The notes under the pieces were generated by a model that ran no database searches, was not told the origin of the DNA, and saw only the letters and a list, made by a program, of their open reading frames with translations. Source: a virus (lineage: Duplodnaviria > Heunggongvirae > Uroviricota > Caudoviricetes). From it: a stretch of DNA of 7,031 bases. The position numbers were made by a program, and so were the translations under genes. This document shows, in pieces, positions 1-7,031 of this stretch. The stretch lies in the IMG/VR virus record IMGVR_UViG_2693429623_000005, positions 1 to 7,031 of that record. One strand, given 5' to 3'. Position 1 is the first letter of the stretch, and each line of letters starts with the position of its first letter.

Positions 1-138
1 TGCAGAGGCGTTCGAGCATTATAACGAATGGCATCCGCATAGTGCACTGGGTTATCGCTCGCCACGGGAATATCTACGGCAGCAAGCCAGTAATGGGTTA
101 AGTGATAACAGGTGTCTGGAAATATAGGGGCAAATCCA
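1..138 (+). mobile_element. IS2-like (IS3 family) insertion sequence, transposase-proximal terminus only; body of element lies upstream of window
   Basis: 117..138 (tggaaatataggggcaaatcca) is the exact reverse complement of 7010..7031. Sequence upstream of it encodes a transposase C-terminus. The terminal sequence matches my recollection of the IS2 right inverted repeat (one mismatch at ~105). Confidence 0.85.
2..127 (+). CDS. insD: IS3-family DDE transposase OrfB, C-terminal 41 codons (5'-partial)
   Basis: Frame 2 reads [41 protein letters not shown] then stop at 125..127. The HYN..RPHS.LGY..P.EY motif is the conserved C-terminus of IS3-family transposases. Confidence 0.8.
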
Positions 139-246
139 GCGTTCATCAGCCCCCGCATTGCCGACAGGATCACAGACGGGGGGCGCAACTGGTTGTCGTT
201 CAACTGGCCCAGCTACCGTTCTTGTATCAGAGGTGTGGCTGCATGA
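139..246 (+). pseudogene. 3' remnant (35 codons) of the gene upstream of the helicase, probably the replication initiator, truncated by the IS
   Basis: Open frame from the IS junction (139) to TGA at 244..246, which overlaps the helicase ATG (ATGA coupling). Identity as an O-like initiator is inferred from position only. Confidence 0.35.
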
Positions 247-1634
247 CAACACCAGTCTGGCGTAATGATGACCTGGAAGGCGCTGTCATTGGCGCATTCT
301 TTCTGCGTGGGGCAGATCATGAAGTGATGGATATTCTGATCACACTACCGGCGGACATTTTTTCTGTACGAGCGTATCGGGATATCTACACAGGCATCTG
401 CAGACAGGCCCGTGTTTCAGGAGTGATTGACCCCGTGCTGTTGTGTAATGAGATGCCGGAACTTGCCCCGGTGATTACTGATACCGGGCGTAAAACCTGG
501 GTGAAGTCTTCACTGGAGCACTATGTTGCAGCGTTGCGGCGCAATGCCGCACTGCGCGATGCAGAAAAAACACTGAATGAGGCGCTGCAGAAATTACGTG
601 ATGCGCATACCTGTGAAGCAGCTGAAGATGCCCTGAAGGATGCGCAGAACATGATGGTCACACTGTCGACAGGAAAGGGCGTCATTCAGCCGGTACATAT
701 TGATGATGTGCTTCCGGAAGTGGTTGAGCGTGTTGAATGCCGGAATCAGGGGCTGGAGAAATCCAGGACGTTGATGACCGGTATTGATGAACTGGACGCA
801 AAAACAGGCGGTATGGAGCCCGGAGACCTGGTATTCATTGCCGCCCGTCCTTCGATGGGGAAAACCGAACTTGCGCTGGACATCATCGACAAGGTGACTG
901 AGCAGGGGCATGGTGTGCTTCTGTTCACCATGGAGATGGCGAACATCCAGATTGGTGAACGTATGGTGTCTGCGGCTGGAGGGATGCCAGTATCACGCCT
1001 GAAATCTGTGGCTCACTTTGAAGATGAAGACTGGGCGCGTTTCTCACAAGGGGTGGGGCGGATGACCGGGCGCAATATCTGGATGGTGGACCAGGCGAAC
1101 CTGACCATTGATGAGATATGCGCAACAACGAAACACCATCTGATTAAACATCCGGAAACGGCGCTGGTGGTGGTTGATTATCTCGGGCTGATAAAAACCC
1201 GAACCACGGGGCGTCATGACCTTGCCGTGGGTGAAATCTCAAAGGGGCTTAAAGGCCTGGCAAAATCCGGTGGTTTTCCGTTGATTGCGCTGAGCCAGCT
1301 CTCCCGCGGTGTGGAGTCCAGACCCAATAAACGTCCCATGAACTCAGACCTGAAAAATTCCGGAGAAATAGAGGCGGATGCAGACATCATTCTGATGCTT
1401 TACAGGGATGAAGTGTACAACCCGGATACACAGGCTACAGGCATAGCAGAAATTAATATCACGAAACAACGTAACGGTTCTCTGGGGACGATTTACCGGC
1501 GTTTTTATAACGGACATTTTCTGCCTGTGGACCAGGAAAGCGCACAGGTTCTTTCCACCCCAATGCGGCAGCCCCAGCCGCGCAGATACAGCAATACACG
1601 TACCGACAGCAGTAAGATGGAGCGTTTCTTTTGA
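243..1634 (+). CDS. DnaB-family replicative DNA helicase (phage-encoded, P22 gp12-like), 463 aa
   Basis: Walker A ARPSMGKT, Walker B LVVVDYLGL, and SQLSRGVESRPNKRPMNSDLKNSGEIEADADIILMLYRDEVY, which closely matches the DnaB C-terminal motor. N-terminal domain LEGAVIGAFFL is DnaB-like. ATG at 243 chosen over the GTG at 102 in the ORF track, which would run into the IS end. Confidence 0.93.
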   Translation: MTTPVWRNDDLEGAVIGAFFLRGADHEVMDILITLPADIFSVRAYRDIYTGICRQARVSGVIDPVLLCNEMPELAPVITDTGRKTWVKSSLEHYVAALRRNAALRDAEKTLNEALQKLRDAHTCEAAEDALKDAQNMMVTLSTGKGVIQPVHIDDVLPEVVERVECRNQGLEKSRTLMTGIDELDAKTGGMEPGDLVFIAARPSMGKTELALDIIDKVTEQGHGVLLFTMEMANIQIGERMVSAAGGMPVSRLKSVAHFEDEDWARFSQGVGRMTGRNIWMVDQANLTIDEICATTKHHLIKHPETALVVVDYLGLIKTRTTGRHDLAVGEISKGLKGLAKSGGFPLIALSQLSRGVESRPNKRPMNSDLKNSGEIEADADIILMLYRDEVYNPDTQATGIAEINITKQRNGSLGTIYRRFYNGHFLPVDQESAQVLSTPMRQPQPRRYSNTRTDSSKMERFF

Positions 1635-1888
1635 ACAACCAGACAATGACTTTTACCTCTGAACAATTGCGTAAACACGCGCAGGAAATGTTGCGACAGG
1701 CGGAACAACTGGAAAAAACAGGTGTAACAAAAGATGCCATTCGTCGGGATATGGTGCCAGCGCTCAGGGAACTGATGCAGGCGAAACATCGCGCACAAAA
1801 AGCGGTGGATGAGCTCGTTGATTGTGTGGCAGAGCTGGAAACCAAAGTTGGAAAGTTTGAAAAAATGGTGCAGGAGGTGCTGCGCTGA
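1631..1888 (+). CDS. hypothetical small protein, predicted helical/coiled-coil (85 aa from TTG at 1631; alternative ATG at 1646 gives 80 aa)
   Basis: ORF fills the helicase-rusA gap exactly. Its TTG overlaps the helicase TGA, and its stop overlaps the rusA ATG (TGATG). Heptad-like charged sequence. No family recognised. Confidence 0.5.
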   Translation: MNNQTMTFTSEQLRKHAQEMLRQAEQLEKTGVTKDAIRRDMVPALRELMQAKHRAQKAVDELVDCVAELETKVGKFEKMVQEVLR

Positions 1889-2259
1889 TGCGCCATGAGT
1901 TTATTTTACCTTATCCGCCGACGGTGAATACTTACTGGCGACGTCGTGGCAGCACATATTTTGTATCAAAAGTTGGTGAGCGTTATCGCCGTGATGTGAC
2001 GCTAATTGTTCGCCAGCAGCGGCTGAAATTAAACCTGTCCGGAAGGCTGGCGATAAAGATTATTGCAGAGCCACCGGATAAGCGCCGTCGTGACCTGGAC
2101 AATATCCTGAAAGCACCACTGGATGCGCTGACGCATGCCGGACTACTCATAGACGACGAGCAGTTTGATGAAATCAATATTGTGCGCGGTCAGCTCGTTC
2201 CTGGTGGGCGACTGGGCGTGAAGATTTATGAAATCACAGGTGATAACGATGGCGCGTGA
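1888..2259 (+). CDS. rusA: RusA-family Holliday junction resolvase, 123 aa
   Basis: [16 protein letters not shown] ... [30 protein letters not shown] ... [11 protein letters not shown] matches the E. coli RusA pattern including the acidic catalytic residues (RRDLDN, DD). Start is coupled to the upstream stop. Confidence 0.9.
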
Positions 2260-2635
2260 TATTCAGCAGGTTATGGAACGGTGGGGGGCTTGGGCTGCAA
2301 ACACTCATGAAGATGTATCCTGGGCGTCGATCGCTGCTGGTTTTAAAGGGTTAATTCCGTCGAAAGTGAAATCACGCCCTCAGTGTTCTGATGATGATGC
2401 AATGATAATTTGTGGCTGTATGGCCCGGTTGAACAAGAAAAATCAGGATTTGCACGATTTGCTGGTGGATTATTACGTAGGTGGAATGACTTTTATGAGT
2501 CTGGCACGGAAACATGGGTGTTCGGATACCTGTATTGGCAAGCGCCTGCAGAAAGCGGAAGGGGTTATTGATGGCATGTTGATGATGCTTGATATCCGGC
2601 TGGAGATGGACAGATACGTAGAACGAATTATGTAG
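2249..2635 (+). CDS. late-gene antiterminator Q, Q933/QuuD type, 128 aa
   Basis: [17 protein letters not shown] ... [20 protein letters not shown] ... [23 protein letters not shown] matches the small Q family of Stx phages and DLP12 QuuD as I recall it. Lies directly after rusA as in DLP12. ATG at 2249 has an AGGTGA RBS 5 nt upstream; the ORF-track start at 2228 is also possible. Confidence 0.7.
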
Positions 2636-2639
2636 GTGC

Positions 2640-2669
2640 TTGACCAGACACATTGTCCGGGGCTATATT
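2640..2669 (+). promoter_or_regulatory. sigma70 promoter candidate immediately downstream of Q (PR'-like): TTGACC-18 bp-TATATT
   Basis: -35 TTGACC at 2640..2645 and -10 TATATT at 2664..2669, starting 5 bp after the Q stop. This is the position of the late promoter in lambdoid phages. Confidence 0.45.
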
Positions 2670-2730
2670 CCTCACGCGCCAGCAAAATCTGGCGTCGGGA
2701 TTGGAACCCCGGATAGAGACCGCGACAGAC

Positions 2731-2752
2731 ACACGCCGCGAGCGTGTTTTTT
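2731..2752 (+). terminator. intrinsic terminator candidate (tR'-like), about 80 nt downstream of the promoter at 2640
   Basis: Stem acacgc (2731..2736) / gcgtgt (2742..2747), loop cgcga, followed by a T-run (2748..2752) then att. Confidence 0.5.
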
Positions 2753-2880
2753 ATTGTCGTATGCACGCGCACATCTGAATTATGGTGGGGCGCATGGGGG
2801 AGCTGAAAAGCTCGCCGGTCGGTTTCCCGGTAGTTCCAACCCTGTGCGTCTCACCACCCGATGATTGGAACCTGACGGTG

Positions 2881-2909
2881 TTGACAGTTTCAGGTTTGCA
2901 GTTTACATT
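2881..2909 (+). promoter_or_regulatory. second sigma70 promoter candidate: TTGACA-17 bp-TACATT
   Basis: Perfect -35 TTGACA at 2881..2886, 17-bp spacer, -10 TACATT at 2904..2909. Confidence 0.35.
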
Positions 2910-2944
2910 TCCCCGCGGTGCTCAAAACACCTCGAAAGCGGTAT

Positions 2945-2972
2945 CCACACCCGATAGCCATGTGGTTTTTTT
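2945..2972 (+). terminator. weak intrinsic terminator candidate, about 55 nt downstream of the promoter at 2881
   Basis: 5-bp stem ccaca (2945..2949) / tgtgg (2961..2965) with an 11-nt loop, followed by seven T (2966..2972). Confidence 0.3.
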
Positions 2973-3115
2973 GTGTCCAGAATTCTTGGTTTATGACCGG
3001 GTGTGCGGCTAATACAATACCAGCAATGGAAATACGCCCGCCGACTTTCGACGGTTTTGAGCGCCCGGTCACCCTCTCAAAAGGGGTAAATCAAAATATT
3101 CGAAAGGACATGTCT

Positions 3116-3607
3116 ATGAATCGCACGTCTATTGAAAAACTCCCGTCACTTACGCATAACCATCTTCCTGTCATGACAACAGAGCTGCTGGCTGATTTGT
3201 ACGGAACAGAGCGCCAGCGTTTGACAAACAATTTCAATCGAAACAAAGAACGGTTTATAGAAGGTAAACATTTTTTCCTGATAGAAGGTGATGCGTTACG
3301 AGAGTTGAAGAACGAAAACTCTTTAAGAGTTTCTGTGAAAATTGCCCGTAACGTTCGCTCCCTCATCCTCTGGACAGAACGTGGCGCAGCCCGTCACGCC
3401 AAAATGCTCGAAACCGATCAGGCGTGGGAAGTGTTCGAAAAACTGGAAGACTGTTATTTCAACCAGAAACAGCCACCAGCGGCACAAAACACATCTATCG
3501 AAAATGATGGATGCGCATTACTGAGCCACTTCGATAAACACGGTCAGGTTGAGTTCACGGAAAAGGTACCCCGCCGATGCGATGGTATGTACTCTGGAAC
3601 GGTTTAA
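3116..3607 (+). CDS. ORF6N-domain protein (phage antirepressor-like DNA-binding protein), 163 aa
   Basis: PVMTTELLADLYGTERQRLTNNFNRNKERFIEGKHFFLIEGDALRELK ... LWTERGAARHAKMLETDQAWEVFEKLEDCYF fits the ORF6N pattern. AAAGGA RBS 7 nt before ATG 3116 (ATG 3110 also in frame). The ORF-track GTG start at 2918 is rejected. Confidence 0.7.
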   Translation: MNRTSIEKLPSLTHNHLPVMTTELLADLYGTERQRLTNNFNRNKERFIEGKHFFLIEGDALRELKNENSLRVSVKIARNVRSLILWTERGAARHAKMLETDQAWEVFEKLEDCYFNQKQPPAAQNTSIENDGCALLSHFDKHGQVEFTEKVPRRCDGMYSGTV

Positions 3608-3619
3608 ATTTTATCTGGA
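3582..3619. repeat. 38-bp perfect direct repeat R1, copy a (atggtatgtactctggaacggtttaaattttatctgga)
   Basis: Identical to 5533..5570. Overlaps the last 26 nt of the ORF6N gene. Confidence 0.9.
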
Positions 3620-3631
3620 AGGATTCTGAAG

Positions 3632-3919
3632 ATGAAAATCGAAGAATTGCGTGAAATTTTTAGTGAAAATGGCCTCTATGCTGTGCGCGTTGAGAATGGA
3701 GCGATTGTCAGCCATTGCCGCATTAGATGTTTGCAATCTCAACAAAGGAAGAGCGGTGCTGTGTTATTTTATTTTTGTAATGGACTTCTGACGGACGGTT
3801 TTATTTTGCGTGAGGACGAATTTGTCACATCATTACGGGTTTTGAAAGAGATTGGTTTTAAGGCTGGTTTTCTGCTTTTGCTGAAGAATAAACTCATCTA
3901 CAATCTTGAGCAGGATTGA
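3632..3919 (+). CDS. hypothetical protein, 95 aa, no family recognised
   Basis: ORF with an AAGGA-type RBS. No competing ORF on the minus strand. Confidence 0.55.
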   Translation: MKIEELREIFSENGLYAVRVENGAIVSHCRIRCLQSQQRKSGAVLFYFCNGLLTDGFILREDEFVTSLRVLKEIGFKAGFLLLLKNKLIYNLEQD

Positions 3920-3957
3920 ACTCCTGCTGTGTAACACCGTGCCACCGGAGAAAGCCG

Positions 3958-4557
3958 ATGGCACATATACAACTGGTCAAACAAACCTCTTCCGGATTAC
4001 TTCTCCCGGCGACGCCGGAGAGTTGCGATTTTCTGCATCAAATCAAAATAGGTGAGTGGATACACGCAGACTTTAAGCGTGTGTGTAACTACGCATTCCA
4101 CAAGCGTTTTTTCAAACTCCTGCAACTGGGTTTCGATTACTGGACTCCGGTCGGTGGGGCGATCACGCCTCGCGAACGAAAACTGGTGTCCGGTTTCGTT
4201 GATTACCTGTGTGAATCAGTAGGCCGGGAACATACGCCAGCTCTGAGCGAAGCCGCAGAGCAATATCTGAATACAGTTGCGACACGCAGAACCAGTGATA
4301 CGGCATTGCTAAAGTCGTTTGAGGCTTTCCGCGAGTGGGTAGCCATTCAGGCCGGATTTTACACCGAGCATTTTTATCCGGACGGTAGCCGTGGGTGTCG
4401 GGCGAAATCTATCGCGTTTGCGAATATGGACGAAACCGAGTTTCAGCAGGTTTATAAATCTGTTCTGAATGTGCTGTGGAACTGGATTCTGTTCCGTAAA
4501 TTTTCCTCTCCGGAACAAGTCGAAAATGTGGCCGCGCAGCTGCTGGAGTTTGCGTAA
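3958..4557 (+). CDS. lambdoid nin-region-type protein, DUF1367-like (about 200 aa), function unknown
   Basis: ATG 3958 with GGAG RBS (ORF-track TTG at 3916 possible). Stop TAA overlaps the next ATG (TAATG). Size and sequence fit my recollection of the DUF1367 family that sits next to YbcO-like genes; the family name is recalled, not searched. Confidence 0.65.
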   Translation: MAHIQLVKQTSSGLLLPATPESCDFLHQIKIGEWIHADFKRVCNYAFHKRFFKLLQLGFDYWTPVGGAITPRERKLVSGFVDYLCESVGREHTPALSEAAEQYLNTVATRRTSDTALLKSFEAFREWVAIQAGFYTEHFYPDGSRGCRAKSIAFANMDETEFQQVYKSVLNVLWNWILFRKFSSPEQVENVAAQLLEFA

Positions 4558-4847
4558 TGGTGGATTTACGTAAAGCGGCGCGGGGGCAGATGTGCACCGT
4601 CAGAATTCCTGGCTACTGCAATCACGATCCGGAAACGTCTGTGCTGGCGCATTACCGACTGGCGGGAACGTGCGGAACAGCGATAAAGCCACACGATATG
4701 CAGGCAGCGATTGCCTGTAGCTCGTGCCACGATTTAATCGACGGGCGGGTAAAAACCAGCGATTACACCAAAGAAGAATTACGCCTGATGCATGCAGAAG
4801 GTGTTTTTCGCACACAAGAAATCTGGAGAAAGGAGGGATATTTATGA
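4557..4847 (+). CDS. YbcO-like protein (DUF1364), putative Zn-binding nuclease, 96 aa
   Basis: MVDLRKAARGQMCTVRIPGYCNHDPETSVLAHYRLAGTCGTAIKP ... IACSSCHDLIDGR resembles DLP12 YbcO as I recall it, with a Cys-rich C-x7-C ... C-x2-C pattern. Coupled to neighbours on both sides. Confidence 0.7.
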   Translation: MVDLRKAARGQMCTVRIPGYCNHDPETSVLAHYRLAGTCGTAIKPHDMQAAIACSSCHDLIDGRVKTSDYTKEELRLMHAEGVFRTQEIWRKEGYL

Positions 4848-5398
4848 TTTACCCAACGAATACAGGAAAAAGCGGAGAACACCTTCGTCTCACCACGCTG
4901 GAAAGTGTCTGGATTCAGGGAAAACTACGTATGTGGGGGCGCTGGTCGTATATTGGTGGCGGTAAGACGGGGAATATGTTTAACCTGATGTTGACCTCTA
5001 AAAAGCTGACAAAAACGGCAATTAACGAGGCGCTCCGGAGGATGAAAAAAGCAGGTCTGAACAAGTCTGAACTTGAGGCTTTTTTGCGGGATATGATTAA
5101 CGGTAAGCAAAAGAGCTGGCTGGCGCATTGTACTGATGCAGAGGCGTTATGTATTGATCGGGTCATAAGTGAGGTGCTGGCAGAGCATCCAGGATTGATT
5201 AGCGTCCTTCGGCAACGGTATGAGGGGCGGGGGATGACCAAACGCAAAATGGCTGAACTGCTGAATGATGCACACCCGAAATGGAGTTTAAGAACCTGTG
5301 AAAGACGCATTGAGCATTGGCTAAAGGTGGCAGAATTTATTTTGTACAAACCAATGGTTATGGCTTTTGGTATAGAGAAAAAAGTTATTGCTTTTTGA
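4844..5398 (+). CDS. 184-aa protein with a C-terminal sigma70 region-4-like helix-turn-helix; candidate transcriptional regulator
   Basis: Strong RBS AGGAGGG (4831..4837) and ATG 4844 overlapping the upstream stop (ATGA). C-terminal VLRQRYEGRGMTKRKMAELLNDAHPKWSLRTCERRIEHWLKVAE resembles ECF-sigma/LuxR-type HTH. It is the last gene before the terminators and tRNAs, the usual place of Q. Confidence 0.65.
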   Translation: MIYPTNTGKSGEHLRLTTLESVWIQGKLRMWGRWSYIGGGKTGNMFNLMLTSKKLTKTAINEALRRMKKAGLNKSELEAFLRDMINGKQKSWLAHCTDAEALCIDRVISEVLAEHPGLISVLRQRYEGRGMTKRKMAELLNDAHPKWSLRTCERRIEHWLKVAEFILYKPMVMAFGIEKKVIAF

Positions 5399-5477
5399 CG
5401 TAAAAACTGCTTCAATTCTTGTACGCTTCGCAAAGCTGTACCGCGAGGCGAATAGCAGACATGGACATTTGAAAGAG

Positions 5478-5499
5478 CCCGCTTTATGCGGGTTTTTTT
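5478..5499 (+). terminator. intrinsic terminator T1
   Basis: Stem cccgc (5478..5482) / gcggg (5488..5492), loop tttat, then seven T (5493..5499). Lies 80 nt after the stop of the 184-aa gene. Confidence 0.6.
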
Positions 5500-5531
5500 A
5501 TACCTGAAAAACGGCACAGGACGTTAAACGT
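5488..5531. repeat. 44-bp perfect direct repeat R2, copy a (gcgggtttttttatacctgaaaaacggcacaggacgttaaacgt)
   Basis: Identical to 5721..5764. Comprises the 3' arm and T-run of a terminator plus a 32-bp tail. Confidence 0.9.
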
Positions 5532-5532
5532 A

Positions 5533-5570
5533 ATGGTATGTACTCTGGAACGGTTTAAATTTTATCTGGA
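5533..5570. repeat. R1, copy b
   Basis: Identical to 3582..3619. Begins 1 nt after the end of R2 copy a. Confidence 0.9.
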
Positions 5571-5631
5571 GCAACACGGGTGGATCGTTGCCCGTAAAGA
5601 GCAACTGGTGGAGCGGTTGATGCGGTTTTAA
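5533..5631 (+). CDS. possible 32-codon ORF starting at the ATG inside R1 copy b (MVCTLERFKFYLEQHGWIVARKEQLVERLMRF)
   Basis: Open frame only; weak RBS (AGGACG, 10-nt spacing). The same ATG in R1 copy a opens a 15-codon frame ending 2 nt before the 95-aa gene. Confidence 0.2.
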   Translation: MVCTLERFKFYLEQHGWIVARKEQLVERLMRF

Positions 5632-5706
5632 AAATTTTTTCCGAAAACTTTACGATCGTAAAAAGTTGAATATCCTGTTAAGAGTGGTTACTACGCCACA
5701 CAGCTT

Positions 5707-5732
5707 AAACCCGCCGATGAGCGGGTTTTTTT
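5707..5732 (+). terminator. intrinsic terminator T2
   Basis: 8-bp stem aaacccgc (5707..5714) / gcgggttt (5721..5728), loop cgatga, T-run 5726..5732. Confidence 0.65.
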
Positions 5733-5764
5733 ATACCTGAAAAACGGCACAGGACGTTAAACGT
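5721..5764. repeat. R2, copy b
   Basis: Identical to 5488..5531. Followed directly by GCTGGTGG (5765..5772). Confidence 0.9.
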
Positions 5765-5782
5765 GCTGGTGGTCAGATGAGT

Positions 5783-5811
5783 TTGCAGATGTGATGACAT
5801 ATGGTTATTAT
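5783..5811 (+). promoter_or_regulatory. sigma70 promoter candidate for the tRNA cluster: TTGCAG-17 bp-TATTAT
   Basis: -35 at 5783..5788, -10 at 5806..5811. Predicted start is 2 to 3 nt before the first tRNA. Confidence 0.4.
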
Positions 5812-5820
5812 TCTGCCTCC

Positions 5821-5897
5821 GGCCCTTTAGCTCAGTTGGTCAGAGCGAGCGACTCATAATCGCCAGGTCGCTGGTTCAAGTCCAGCAAGGGCCACCA
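5821..5897 (+). tRNA. tRNA with anticodon CAU, Ile2 (lysidine) type, ileZ/ileX-like; 77 nt with encoded CCA
   Basis: Cloverleaf folded by hand: acceptor ggccctt/aagggcc, D-stem gctc/gagc, anticodon loop cuCAUaa, T-loop ttcaagt. Overall close to E. coli ileX as recalled, hence Ile2 rather than Met. Confidence 0.85.
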
Positions 5898-5898
5898 A

Positions 5899-5975
5899 CC
5901 ACCACTAGCTCATCCGGATAGAGCATCAACCTTCTAAGTTGACGGTGCGAGGTTCGAGTCCTCGGTGGTGGGCCA
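5899..5975 (+). tRNA. tRNA-Arg (anticodon UCU), 77 nt with encoded CCA
   Basis: Acceptor ccaccac/gtggtgg (7 bp perfect), anticodon stem tcaac/gttga, loop cuUCUaa, T-stem cgagg/cctcg with loop ttcgagt. Confidence 0.8.
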
Positions 5976-5977
5976 GC

Positions 5978-6053
<76 letters not shown>

Positions 6054-6056
6054 TAT

Positions 6057-6131
<75 letters not shown>

Positions 6132-6745
6132 GCGAGATTTGAGACGAAGGTTGTTATTTGCACTGACACAATATTGTGTGGGAATGTCTGACTCCTTACC
6201 ATCTCCTGTTCTGTGATGTTGTTTTGTTGCAGTTCCAGTGCTCTTTTTTCAGCACCAGAATGGTGCATTGTCGGTCAGGTTACGTAGTGAACCTCTGGCA
6301 GGGGACTGATAATGCATCATTCTGGTGTTGTAAATATCTCTTCGGACAACTTACAAAATATTCTAAGCAAACCCCGGGAACACACTCTTAACTGCCTTGG
6401 CTGGCGGTTTTTTGTACAGCGCTCGGTATGTGTGAGCTGGAAATCAGATTTTGCATGGACTGGAATCATGCTGTTATTTAGGGGCGAAGAACTGGCTTTT
6501 TCTTCCGCCTTCTCACCAGTAACGATTAGAAAAATAATGAAATGCCCCCCTCCGGGGAGGAGGACCGTAGAAAAAAGGACCCGCCAGCAAAAACATTGGG
6601 GATGAACAGCTTTCGCTACTCAGATTGCTGGCGGGTAAAGTTCCTCATGAATTAAGAATGCTACGCGATCTTTTTTAATGGAAATGAAAATTATTGTCAA
6701 TTAGTCGTGCGTGTTTTTTCATACAATATTGGTAAAGGTGATTCA

Positions 6746-6776
6746 GGCCATCAGAGTTTTGCTGATGGCCTTTTTT
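6746..6776 (+). terminator. strong intrinsic terminator 36 bp upstream of the holin start
   Basis: Perfect 9-bp stem ggccatcag (6746..6754) / ctgatggcc (6762..6770), loop agttttg, T-run 6771..6776. Confidence 0.7.
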
Positions 6777-6811
6777 CTTTCCGATAGCACAGGTCTGTCG
6801 GGGGGCGGGAT

Positions 6812-7009
6812 ATGTATCAGATGGAAAAAATATCAACAGGCATTGCCTACGGCACCTCCGCCGGCAGTGCCGGCTACTGGTTTTTGCAGTGGTTGGATCA
6901 GGTCAGTCCATCACAGTGGGCTGCGATTGGTGTGCTGGGAAGTCTGCTTCTGGGGCTTCTGACTTATCTGACGAATCTGTATTTCAAAATAAGAGAAGAT
7001 AAGCGTAAG
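6812..7009 (+). CDS. S: S21-like class II pinholin with dual start (Met1/Met4); native frame interrupted after codon 66 by the IS terminus at 7010
   Basis: Translation [66 protein letters not shown], then the frame continues into IS sequence (WICPYIS) with no stop before the window end. Matches the phage 21 S21 68/71 holin as recalled. Missing from the ORF track because there is no in-window stop. Confidence 0.8.
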
Positions 7010-7031
7010 TGGATTTGCCCCTATATTTCCA
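7010..7031 (-). mobile_element. IS2-like terminus of a second copy in inverted orientation; element continues beyond the window
   Basis: tggatttgcccctatatttcca is the exact reverse complement of 117..138. Confidence 0.85.

Follow-up and report, generated by a model that had tools for sequence, protein, structure and literature searches.

Tandem Q modules in a prophage fragment: a Rac/Qin-type nin/Q block probably joined into the ORF6N gene of another prophage type by illegitimate recombination

Introduction

In the Gifsy prophages, an irsA homologue follows a small antirepressor gene within one operon (PMC3121763). The layout of Gifsy-1 reads dinI-gfoA(antirepressor)-irsA(DUF1367)-ninG-Q-isrK-orf45-anrP(ORF6N-like)-tRNA-lysis. 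In the Qin prophage of Escherichia coli K-12 (hokD-rem-ydfU-ydfT/quuQ), rem follows hokD and stands ahead of a nin-like gene and Q, and its product was shown by experiment to be an antirepressor of DicA, with the dicBp promoter derepressed 165-fold (PMC10448788). Here, a stretch of 7,031 nucleotides (nt) from a virus of the Caudoviricetes (IMG/VR record IMGVR_UViG_2693429623_000005, positions 1 to 7,031; hereafter the window) was analyzed, in which a block of four genes encodes a Rem-like, a DUF1367/IrsA-family, a YbcO/DUF1364, and a DUF1133 protein. A preliminary description, made from the letters alone, had offered two readings of this block: a fossil second nin/Q module, or an accessory nuclease-plus-regulator cassette, possibly for defence. 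According to the present analysis, the block is very probably an ordinary nin/Q module of a Rac/Qin-type prophage that was joined into the ORF6N gene of another prophage type by illegitimate recombination.

Both the block and the window parallel the layout of Gifsy-1, with several differences. The Gifsy-1 Q (AntQ) is annotated as phage 82 Q-like and not as DUF1133, the nuclease is NinG instead of YbcO, and the antirepressor GfoA is, unlike that of the block, LexA-controlled and encoded after dinI. Also unlike Gifsy-1, the IsrK-ORF6N part of the window goes with an upstream Q gene (Q1) and not with the DUF1133 gene (Q2). AntQ was considered as experimental support for DUF1133 and was rejected, given its Q82-like annotation and a tblastn search with Q2 that returned no Gifsy-1 hit. 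In the K-12 Qin stretch, megablast and tblastn searches with the DUF1367, YbcO, and DUF1133 sequences of the window found no match; ydfU and ydfT hence occupy the corresponding positions but are different genes. In Rac-like prophages of E. coli and Shigella, all four genes recur with their order and overlaps unchanged, followed by the same leader/terminator and tRNA cluster. In these prophages hok lies upstream and the block is the only Q module, whereas in the window the 3' part of an ORF6N gene replaces the hok side and a different Q module is found 1 kb upstream.

Results

Gene content of the block

Four genes on the same strand were located at 3632-5398, as had been described before (Table 1). 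The last three are coupled, also as described, through overlaps that were read from the sequence: the DUF1367 stop and the YbcO start share TAATG (4555-4559), and the YbcO stop and the DUF1133 start share ATGA (4844-4847). The DUF1367 start was placed at the ATG at 3958 and not at the TTG of the longest open reading frame (ORF), because the Pfam match opens at residue 15 and the RefSeq homologues are 199 amino acids (aa) long; a GGAG ribosome-binding site lies 6 nt 5' of this ATG. Pfam scores for DUF1367 (PF07105, 317.9 bits), YbcO (PF07102, 151.3 bits), and DUF1133 (PF06576, 356.7 bits) were all far beyond chance, and the first two bear out the names previously given to the second and third genes. 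No NCBIfam family was found for any of the four proteins.

The 95-aa protein, formerly listed as unknown, was placed in the Rem family. BLASTP comparisons gave 68% identity over 80 aa to E. coli K-12 Rem and 64% identity to rem of phage Rac 442/2, the protein falls in phrog_340, and a product identical to it carries a precomputed PF27490:Rem match. The local Pfam scan, which used a copy lacking the PF27490 model, assigned it no family. By membership it is thus a predicted small antirepressor of the Rem family, and by analogy with K-12 Rem it would be expected to inactivate a DicA/RacR-type repressor.

The PF07105 match of the DUF1367 protein spans its full length, and the protein is 53% identical to Gifsy-1 STM2620, the irsA homologue. 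It belongs to PHROG 319, which is labelled as NinB/Orf recombination mediator, a label that derives from clustering only; a PDB sequence search with this protein gave no meaningful match. The YbcO protein matched the YbcO structure in PDB (3G27) with an E value of 1.4e-30, with the C..C and CS.CH motifs aligned, such that the Cys/His zinc and active-site motif of the family is kept. It falls in PHROG 131 (HNH endonuclease), and a nuclease function has been predicted for DUF1364 (PMC4999995). The protein is therefore predicted to be a Cys-rich nuclease of the His-Me-finger (HNH) type, in agreement with the earlier suggestion of a Cys-rich putative nuclease.

The DUF1133 protein as a second Q

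The fourth protein had been described as a 184-aa helix-turn-helix protein; its length was retained, and its label gave way to DUF1133, a Q-like family. Besides PF06576, the protein also scored above the gathering threshold of PF06530 (Phage_antitermQ; 29.4 vs 26 bits, residues 69-163), a match that is precomputed on nearly all DUF1133 homologues. It matched PHROGs 753, 14465, 943, and 79, all named as anti-termination protein Q-like and two of them shared with Q1. The sole significant PDB matches were the Q21 chains 6P18 and 6JNX (E of 4e-4 with the single sequence and 2.3e-5 with a profile), and Q21 is the only solved structure matched by both the DUF1133 profile and Q1 (E of 2.7e-7 to the same chains). 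The alignment to Q21 is collinear at both termini and takes in the W..G.L..WG.W.Y motif near the N terminus as well as the helix region at the C terminus, although the two proteins differ in length (162 aa in Q21 vs 184 aa) and are alike at the profile level only. In Rac-like prophages the DUF1133 protein is the only Q candidate, and a survey of Stx phages lists DUF1133 as "Q antiterminator (HHPred)" (PMC8136144). To judge by these similarities, the DUF1133 protein is a remote member of the Q21 family of late-gene antiterminators, with a predicted antitermination activity, and the block accordingly ends in a second Q gene. The idea of a second nin/Q module was thereby sustained: the fourth gene is of the Q family, and the same block serves as the sole nin/Q module of Rac-like prophages.

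Native setting and prevalence of the block

In E. coli FDAARGOS_944, window positions 3610-5537 and 5721-7009 were found at 99.7% identity, and the block corresponds to NZ_CP065613.1 4299097-4300863. The gene order of this prophage is repressor, cro, ydaT, replication genes, DUF977, queH, hokD, the four genes, the same four tRNAs as in the window, holin, RrrD lysozyme, Rz, and terminase, and the prophage has no Q gene besides that of the block. Four further loci (L093, L094, L097, and L098) share this context at 99.7-100% DNA identity, again with no other Q, and two of them (L094 and L097) are 100% identical to the block region over 1922 nt. The same layout without another Q was also found in phage vB_EcoS-683R6, and in phage Rac of E. 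coli 442/2 (MN652886) the genes are annotated as rem/irsA/ybcO/q. The assembly collection has 4517 blocks with the exact Rem product, and the ten places listed for it were all hok-Rem-DUF1367-YbcO-DUF1133 arrangements or versions of it disrupted by an insertion sequence (IS).

Neighborhoods were surveyed for the 80 closest DUF1133 loci in IMG/VR. Directly upstream of the DUF1133 gene were DUF1367-YbcO in 48 loci, RusA in 30, YbcO alone in one, and another gene in one. The neighbor was always nin-type and on the same strand, and this variation is the usual interchange of nin genes. Among complete E. coli genomes, the DUF1367-YbcO-DUF1133 triad was matched in 1768 of 5426, with five of 2106 places on plasmids, and it was present on three plasmid records in PLSDB. 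The block also stands at the nin/Q position, with the helicase upstream and the tRNAs and holin downstream in the window, and between the replication genes and the lysis cassette in the native loci. Such a neighborhood survey had been proposed in the preliminary description; it found the homologues essentially only as ordinary nin-region genes next to Q, the outcome named there as speaking against a cassette.

A second kind of double-Q prophage was observed in the IMG/VR loci L070 and L071 (the latter a 51-kb contig, positions 2467-3000 and 6115-7543). Both have a Q-like gene (PF06530, 177 aa) ~4 kb ahead of the triad, with hok and three Pfam-negative genes on the reverse strand in between. 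Double-Q mosaics are thus not unique to the window.

Flanking repeats and junctions

Two types of prophage sequence were distinguished in the window. The A-type is a prophage with the order helicase-RusA-Q(PF06530)-IsrK/C4 RNAs-ORF6N-terminator, exemplified by E. coli EC12 and SCU-125 (L087, L088) with RusA, Q(PF06530), and ORF6N ahead of a terminator, and the B-type is the Rac/Qin-type lambdoid prophage from which the block derives. An exact 38-nt direct repeat (R38), which the preliminary description had recognized as its conserved R1/R2 flanks, delimits a repeat unit of 1951 bp (3582-5532) between the two halves of the ORF6N gene. The B-type content of this unit (3610-5537) extends from just 5' of rem to just past the Q terminator. 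Additionally, a 50-nt repeat (T50) with 96% identical copies lies in the terminator tails.

The breakpoints were resolved as follows. On the left, A-type similarity reaches as far as 3619/3620 and B-type similarity sets in at 3610; the left crossover therefore used a 10-nt microhomology, TTTATCTGGA (3610-3619), which forms the last 10 nt of R38 copy 1. On the right, B-type matches end at about 5531-5537 and the A-type resumes exactly at 5533, with a few shared nucleotides at most. The sequence returns to the B-type inside T50, at 5721. Together these breakpoints make the window read A-B-A-B.

The uninterrupted state of the ORF6N gene was observed directly. A synthetic query that joined 3300-3619 to 5571-5800 aligned without a break to 32 E. 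coli genomes (90-95% identity), and R38 occurs once in the uninterrupted A-type genomes, as coding sequence near the 3' end of ORF6N. Native B-type loci have no R38 on either side of the block and share only its last 10 nt. Scans of IMG/VR and of the 5426 complete E. coli genomes found neither junction of the window; in the GTDB species representatives and JGI metagenomes, where the scan covered the left junction alone, that junction was likewise missing. A look-up of the exact truncated ORF6N product gave no record, and one with Q1 gave two short draft contigs only. The R38 repeats are by-products of recombination, namely a duplicated piece of ORF6N, and not cassette ends. The flanks reported earlier are hence real, but the argument for a mobile cassette that had been drawn from them does not hold.

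The upstream Q1 unit and the interrupted ORF6N gene

The complete RusA-Q-promoter-terminator unit that had been noted upstream of the block was located, with Q1 matching PF06530 (Table 1). Four RNAs, taken at the Rfam gathering score, were found at 2640-3078, and the unit is therefore also a control region of an ORF6N antirepressor, similar to P1 immI or to Gifsy-1 IsrK. A second sigma-70-like promoter, 5' of ORF6N, was observed in the interval that separates sRNA-Xcc1 from the C4 RNA, and the inserted block could be driven from it as well. Since only 22 nt of native upstream DNA were retained by the block, its genes are transcribable only from one of the two A-type promoters (2640-2669 or 2881-2909).

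The ORF6N gene and the Rfam RNAs stand between the Q1 unit and the block and were absent from the preliminary description. The ORF6N protein is 62% identical to Gifsy-1 STM2616, and its gene carries two lesions. The first is a +1 frameshift, with CCCC at 3569-3572 vs CCC in relatives, which leads to an early stop at 3605-3607. The second is the 1951-bp unit, which sets the last 20 codons apart from the gene. With one C taken out of 3569-3572 and 3619 joined directly to 5571, the sequence again encodes a 189-aa ORF6N with the same C terminus as in L087 and L088, and the block therefore sits inside the ORF6N gene, with 5533-5631 as its orphaned end.

Candidate promoter, leader, and terminator downstream of Q2

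A stretch of ~100 nt 3' of the DUF1133 genes is kept in about 70 loci and includes a candidate late promoter for Q2. In the window, this element consists of a -35 sequence TTGCTT (5388-5393), a 17-nt spacer that contains the Q2 stop codon, and a TG-extended -10 sequence TGcTTCAAT (5408-5416), and, in a comparison that also took in the Q1 region, it aligns with TTGATT-17-TATCTT of the diverged phage Rac 442/2. Q proteins need a sigma-dependent pause element, as in the lambda, 82, and 21 systems. Just downstream of the expected start of the Q2 leader lies a -10-like TA(N)GCT, which could, by analogy, be such a pause element for Q.

The predicted leader folds at -30.3 kcal/mol (z = -4.2), and the leader and terminator are conserved across DUF1133-linked loci. 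Variants of the leader hairpin that were checked by eye displayed no clear compensatory changes, and no claim on RNA structure is made. The region downstream of Q2 may thus form a PR'-tR' unit giving an RNA of ~77 nt, which would be the same size as the IsrK-like RNA downstream of Q1.

An exchange point was also observed at this position in other loci. In six IMG/VR loci (L001, L080-L084), a DUF1133-type Q gene (88% identical, residues 1-175) is followed by an IsrK/C4/ORF6N region as after Q1, and the homology switches inside the promoter, after its -35 element and before its -10 element. This pattern suggests a recurrent exchange point that keeps the upstream half of the promoter together with the Q gene to which it belongs. 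One of the six, PP818812.1 (L001), is named Actinobacillus phage vB_Apl-pPE4 and carries DUF1367-YbcO-DUF1133, ORF6N, and hok at 91-95% nucleotide identity to the window. Its E. coli-type lambdoid genes make the stated Actinobacillus host look doubtful.

Layout and boundaries of the window

ORF, tRNA, and Pfam calls resolved the window into a single long gene array, all on one strand. Inverted termini of the IS3 family, with 22-nt arms that are 100% complementary, were found at both window ends, and positions 1-138 are 100% identical to ends annotated as "IS3 family transposase". We take these ends to be IS2-like. The phage DNA proper is 139-7009, between the inverted ends. The left end cuts a DnaC-like gene upstream of the helicase, and the right end truncates the S21-type holin five codons short of its end. 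Because the inverted ends cut the array on both sides, the window is an IS-bounded prophage fragment. The junction between the holin and the IS end was also found in loci L094 and L097 (HE616528.1, presumably Shigella sonnei 53G).

As stated in the preliminary description, the block precedes the tRNAs. These form a cluster of four that is 99.7% identical to that of FDAARGOS_944, where the tRNAs stand after the DUF1133 gene. The first tRNA (5821-5897) was called as Met (CAU) by ARAGORN, and the identical FDAARGOS_944 gene is annotated as tRNA-Ile in RefSeq; it is probably a lysidine-modified Ile2 tRNA, which we presume to resemble ileZ of Stx phages. The spacer of 680 nt between the tRNAs and the holin (6132-6811) is non-coding. 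It includes a 31-nt imperfect inverted repeat (6246-6276 and 6304-6334, 84%), several terminator-like hairpins (for example, a 10-bp hairpin at 6745-6771), and a CGTGCGTGTTTTTT motif at 6706-6719 that is similar to the terminator tail after Q1.

Table 1. Positions of features located in the window.
Feature	Position	Strand	Remarks
IS3-family end, left arm	117-138		inverted, 22 nt
DnaB-type helicase	243-1634	+	
85-aa ORF			between helicase and RusA in listed gene order
RusA	1888-2259	+	
Q1 antiterminator	2228-2635	+	PF06530, 176 bits; overlaps RusA
Sigma-70-like promoter	2640-2669	+	TTGACC-18-TATATT; promoter scan
C4 targets a1/b1	2663-2715	+	Rfam
isrK-like 77-nt RNA with terminator	2676-2752	+	Rfam, 77.5 bits
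Terminator of Q1 unit	2731-2752	+	terminator scan
C4 antisense RNA	2778-2861	+	Rfam, 71 bits
Second sigma-70-like promoter	2881-2909		TTGACA-17-TACATT, 10/12
sRNA-Xcc1	2995-3078	+	Rfam, 77.4 bits
ORF6N gene (AnrP/Ant-like antirepressor)	3110-3607	+	PF10543; PHROG anti-repressor families
R38 copy 1	3582-3619	+	final ORF6N coding stretch still contiguous with the gene
rem-like gene	3632-3919	+	95 aa
DUF1367/IrsA-family gene	3958-4557	+	199 aa; longest ORF 3916-4557
YbcO/DUF1364 gene	4557-4847	+	96 aa
DUF1133 gene (Q2)	4844-5398	+	184 aa; inside longer GTG ORF 4724-5398
Candidate Q2 late promoter	5388-5416	+	predicted from comparative alignment
Predicted leader, ~77 nt	5423-5499	+	8-bp conserved 5' hairpin, then intrinsic terminator
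Intrinsic terminator, candidate tR' of Q2	5470-5499	+	GCCCGC-loop-GCGGGU plus U run
T50 copy 1	5488-5537	+	terminator tail plus 32 nt; end of B-type insert
Orphan ORF6N 3' end	5533-5631	+	R38 copy 2 (5533-5570), last 20 codons, and stop (MVCTLERFKFYLEQHGWIVARKEQLVERLMRF)
Second terminator and T50 copy 2	5707-5770	+	T50 copy 2 at 5721-5770; terminator native to ORF6N unit
tRNA cluster (CAU, Arg-UCU, Thr-UGU, Gly-UCC)	5821-6131	+	belongs to B-type prophage
S21-type class II holin	6812-7009	+	
IS3-family end, right arm	7010-7031		inverted, 22 nt

Discussion

The native contexts and the junctions of the block point to an ordinary nin/Q module that was moved between two prophage types. In its native B-type order, hok-rem-DUF1367-ybcO-Q-(leader/terminator)-tRNAs-holin, the block forms the right end of the early operon, and Q2 would be expected to load on RNA polymerase at a promoter just past its own stop codon and to carry it beyond the terminator, so that the tRNA and lysis genes are transcribed. 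An illegitimate recombination between prophages probably joined the block to the A-type sequence, using the 10-nt microhomology on the left and at most a few nucleotides on the right, with 38 nt of ORF6N duplicated in the process. The return to the B-type tRNAs and holin would have come about by homologous exchange within the 50-nt terminator tail that both types share. The outcome is two different Q modules in tandem within a defective, IS-bounded prophage fragment. Several two- or three-step routes fit the A-B-A-B product, among them a template switch and a T50 homologous exchange combined with a single microhomology join or a pair of them.

Several points weigh against this interpretation. 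The order and number of the recombination events are not separable, and the choice of recipient lineage is arbitrary. The assignment of DUF1133 to the Q proteins draws on weak but consistent similarity (29.4 bits, 43%, and a Q21 E value of 2e-5), where the 43% is the hhalign probability of the DUF1133 alignment vs the single Q1 sequence, kept as weak support. An AlphaFold2 model of the DUF1133 protein from a 32-sequence alignment was too poor for a fold test, with a mean predicted local distance difference test (pLDDT) of 53.3 and a predicted template modeling score (pTM) of 0.34; the alignment was shallow because all listed homologues are at least 72% identical. In the literature searched, no experiment on any DUF1133 protein was found. 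Furthermore, a consensus promoter scan from the Q2 stop to the terminator called nothing, since the candidate promoter lacks the A at position 2 of the -10 element.

A more far-reaching proposal is that the decayed, IS-bounded fragment acts as a switch in trans, where the firing of Q1 would yield Rem and a DUF1133 Q that wake Rac/Qin-type prophages, and where DUF1133 would represent a fourth, uncharacterised class of Q with an unusual promoter. We regard this proposal as unlikely. A related explanation is a two-tier circuit, in which a transcript controlled by Q1 and IsrK-C4 would express Rem and Q2, and these would act in trans on the repressors and late genes of DicA/RacR-type prophages. The retention of only 22 nt of native upstream sequence is in line with such a circuit, as transcription must come from upstream, and so are the four intact frames, which are 99-100% identical to those of apparently complete prophages, and the PF06530 Q gene ~4 kb upstream of the triad in L070 and L071. 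Cross-talk of antirepressors in trans has also been documented for the Gifsy prophages (PMC3121763) and for Rem and DicA (PMC10448788). However, IS ends flank the fragment, both the holin gene and the ORF6N gene in it are broken, and its arrangement is unique, a pattern that fits decay over selection. The circuit was accordingly judged quite improbable.

The block could also be a moron cassette, that is, a nuclease and a regulator for defence or anti-defence inserted downstream of Q, as the second reading in the preliminary description had it. It does lie downstream of a complete Q-promoter-terminator unit and encodes a predicted HNH-type nuclease, for which PADLOC returned very weak matches to HNH effectors (E of 0.002-0.006, about 15 bits, over 30 residues). 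These matches reach at most 16 bits and cover the HNH motif only, no PADLOC family was found for Rem, DUF1367, or DUF1133, and the presumed regulator is a Q homologue, such that no significant hit remains in favor of defence. In addition, every other genome examined has these genes at the nin/Q position of the early operon instead of the moron position, and the block in the window breaks into a gene rather than occupying a space between genes. A moron cassette is thus very unlikely and largely refuted by its context.

Even harder to sustain is an autonomous mobile cassette that moves by site-specific recombination or transposition with R1/R2 as its ends, a reading for which the exact 38-nt direct repeat around the 1951-bp unit is the main attraction. 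This repeat is ORF6N coding sequence that is single in uninterrupted genomes and hence target-derived, and at 38 nt it is far longer than known transposon target duplications. The ORF and Pfam calls included no integrase or transposase gene in the block, the native loci lack R38 apart from the shared 10 nt, and no second site with the same flanks was found where the junctions were scanned. Such a cassette is extremely doubtful. The probability of an assembly artefact that joined two prophages of one genome at short repeats is next to nil, since, despite the alternation of A-type and B-type sequence with repeats at the joints, the parents share too little (10 nt on the left and a few on the right) to mislead an assembler, and the 38-nt repeat exists in the product only and not in the B-type parent.

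The preferred reading, an ordinary nin/Q module joined into ORF6N, does away with a putative cargo or defence cassette and exchanges four vague labels for specific ones: Rem antirepressor, IrsA/DUF1367, YbcO nuclease, and Q-type antiterminator of the DUF1133 family. The module itself is known and very common, and its tandem arrangement in the window is a singular mosaic scar within a prophage undergoing decay, with little import beyond annotation. As such, the locus provides a clean, base-resolved case of microhomology-mediated recombination between two resident prophage types that left two Q modules in tandem. DUF1133 proteins are very common in prophages of E. coli, Shigella, Salmonella, and Citrobacter, including Stx phages, and those phages seem to have no late antiterminator besides them. 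Because Q controls the expression of Stx and lysis genes, the promoter and binding site of DUF1133 would be worth mapping.

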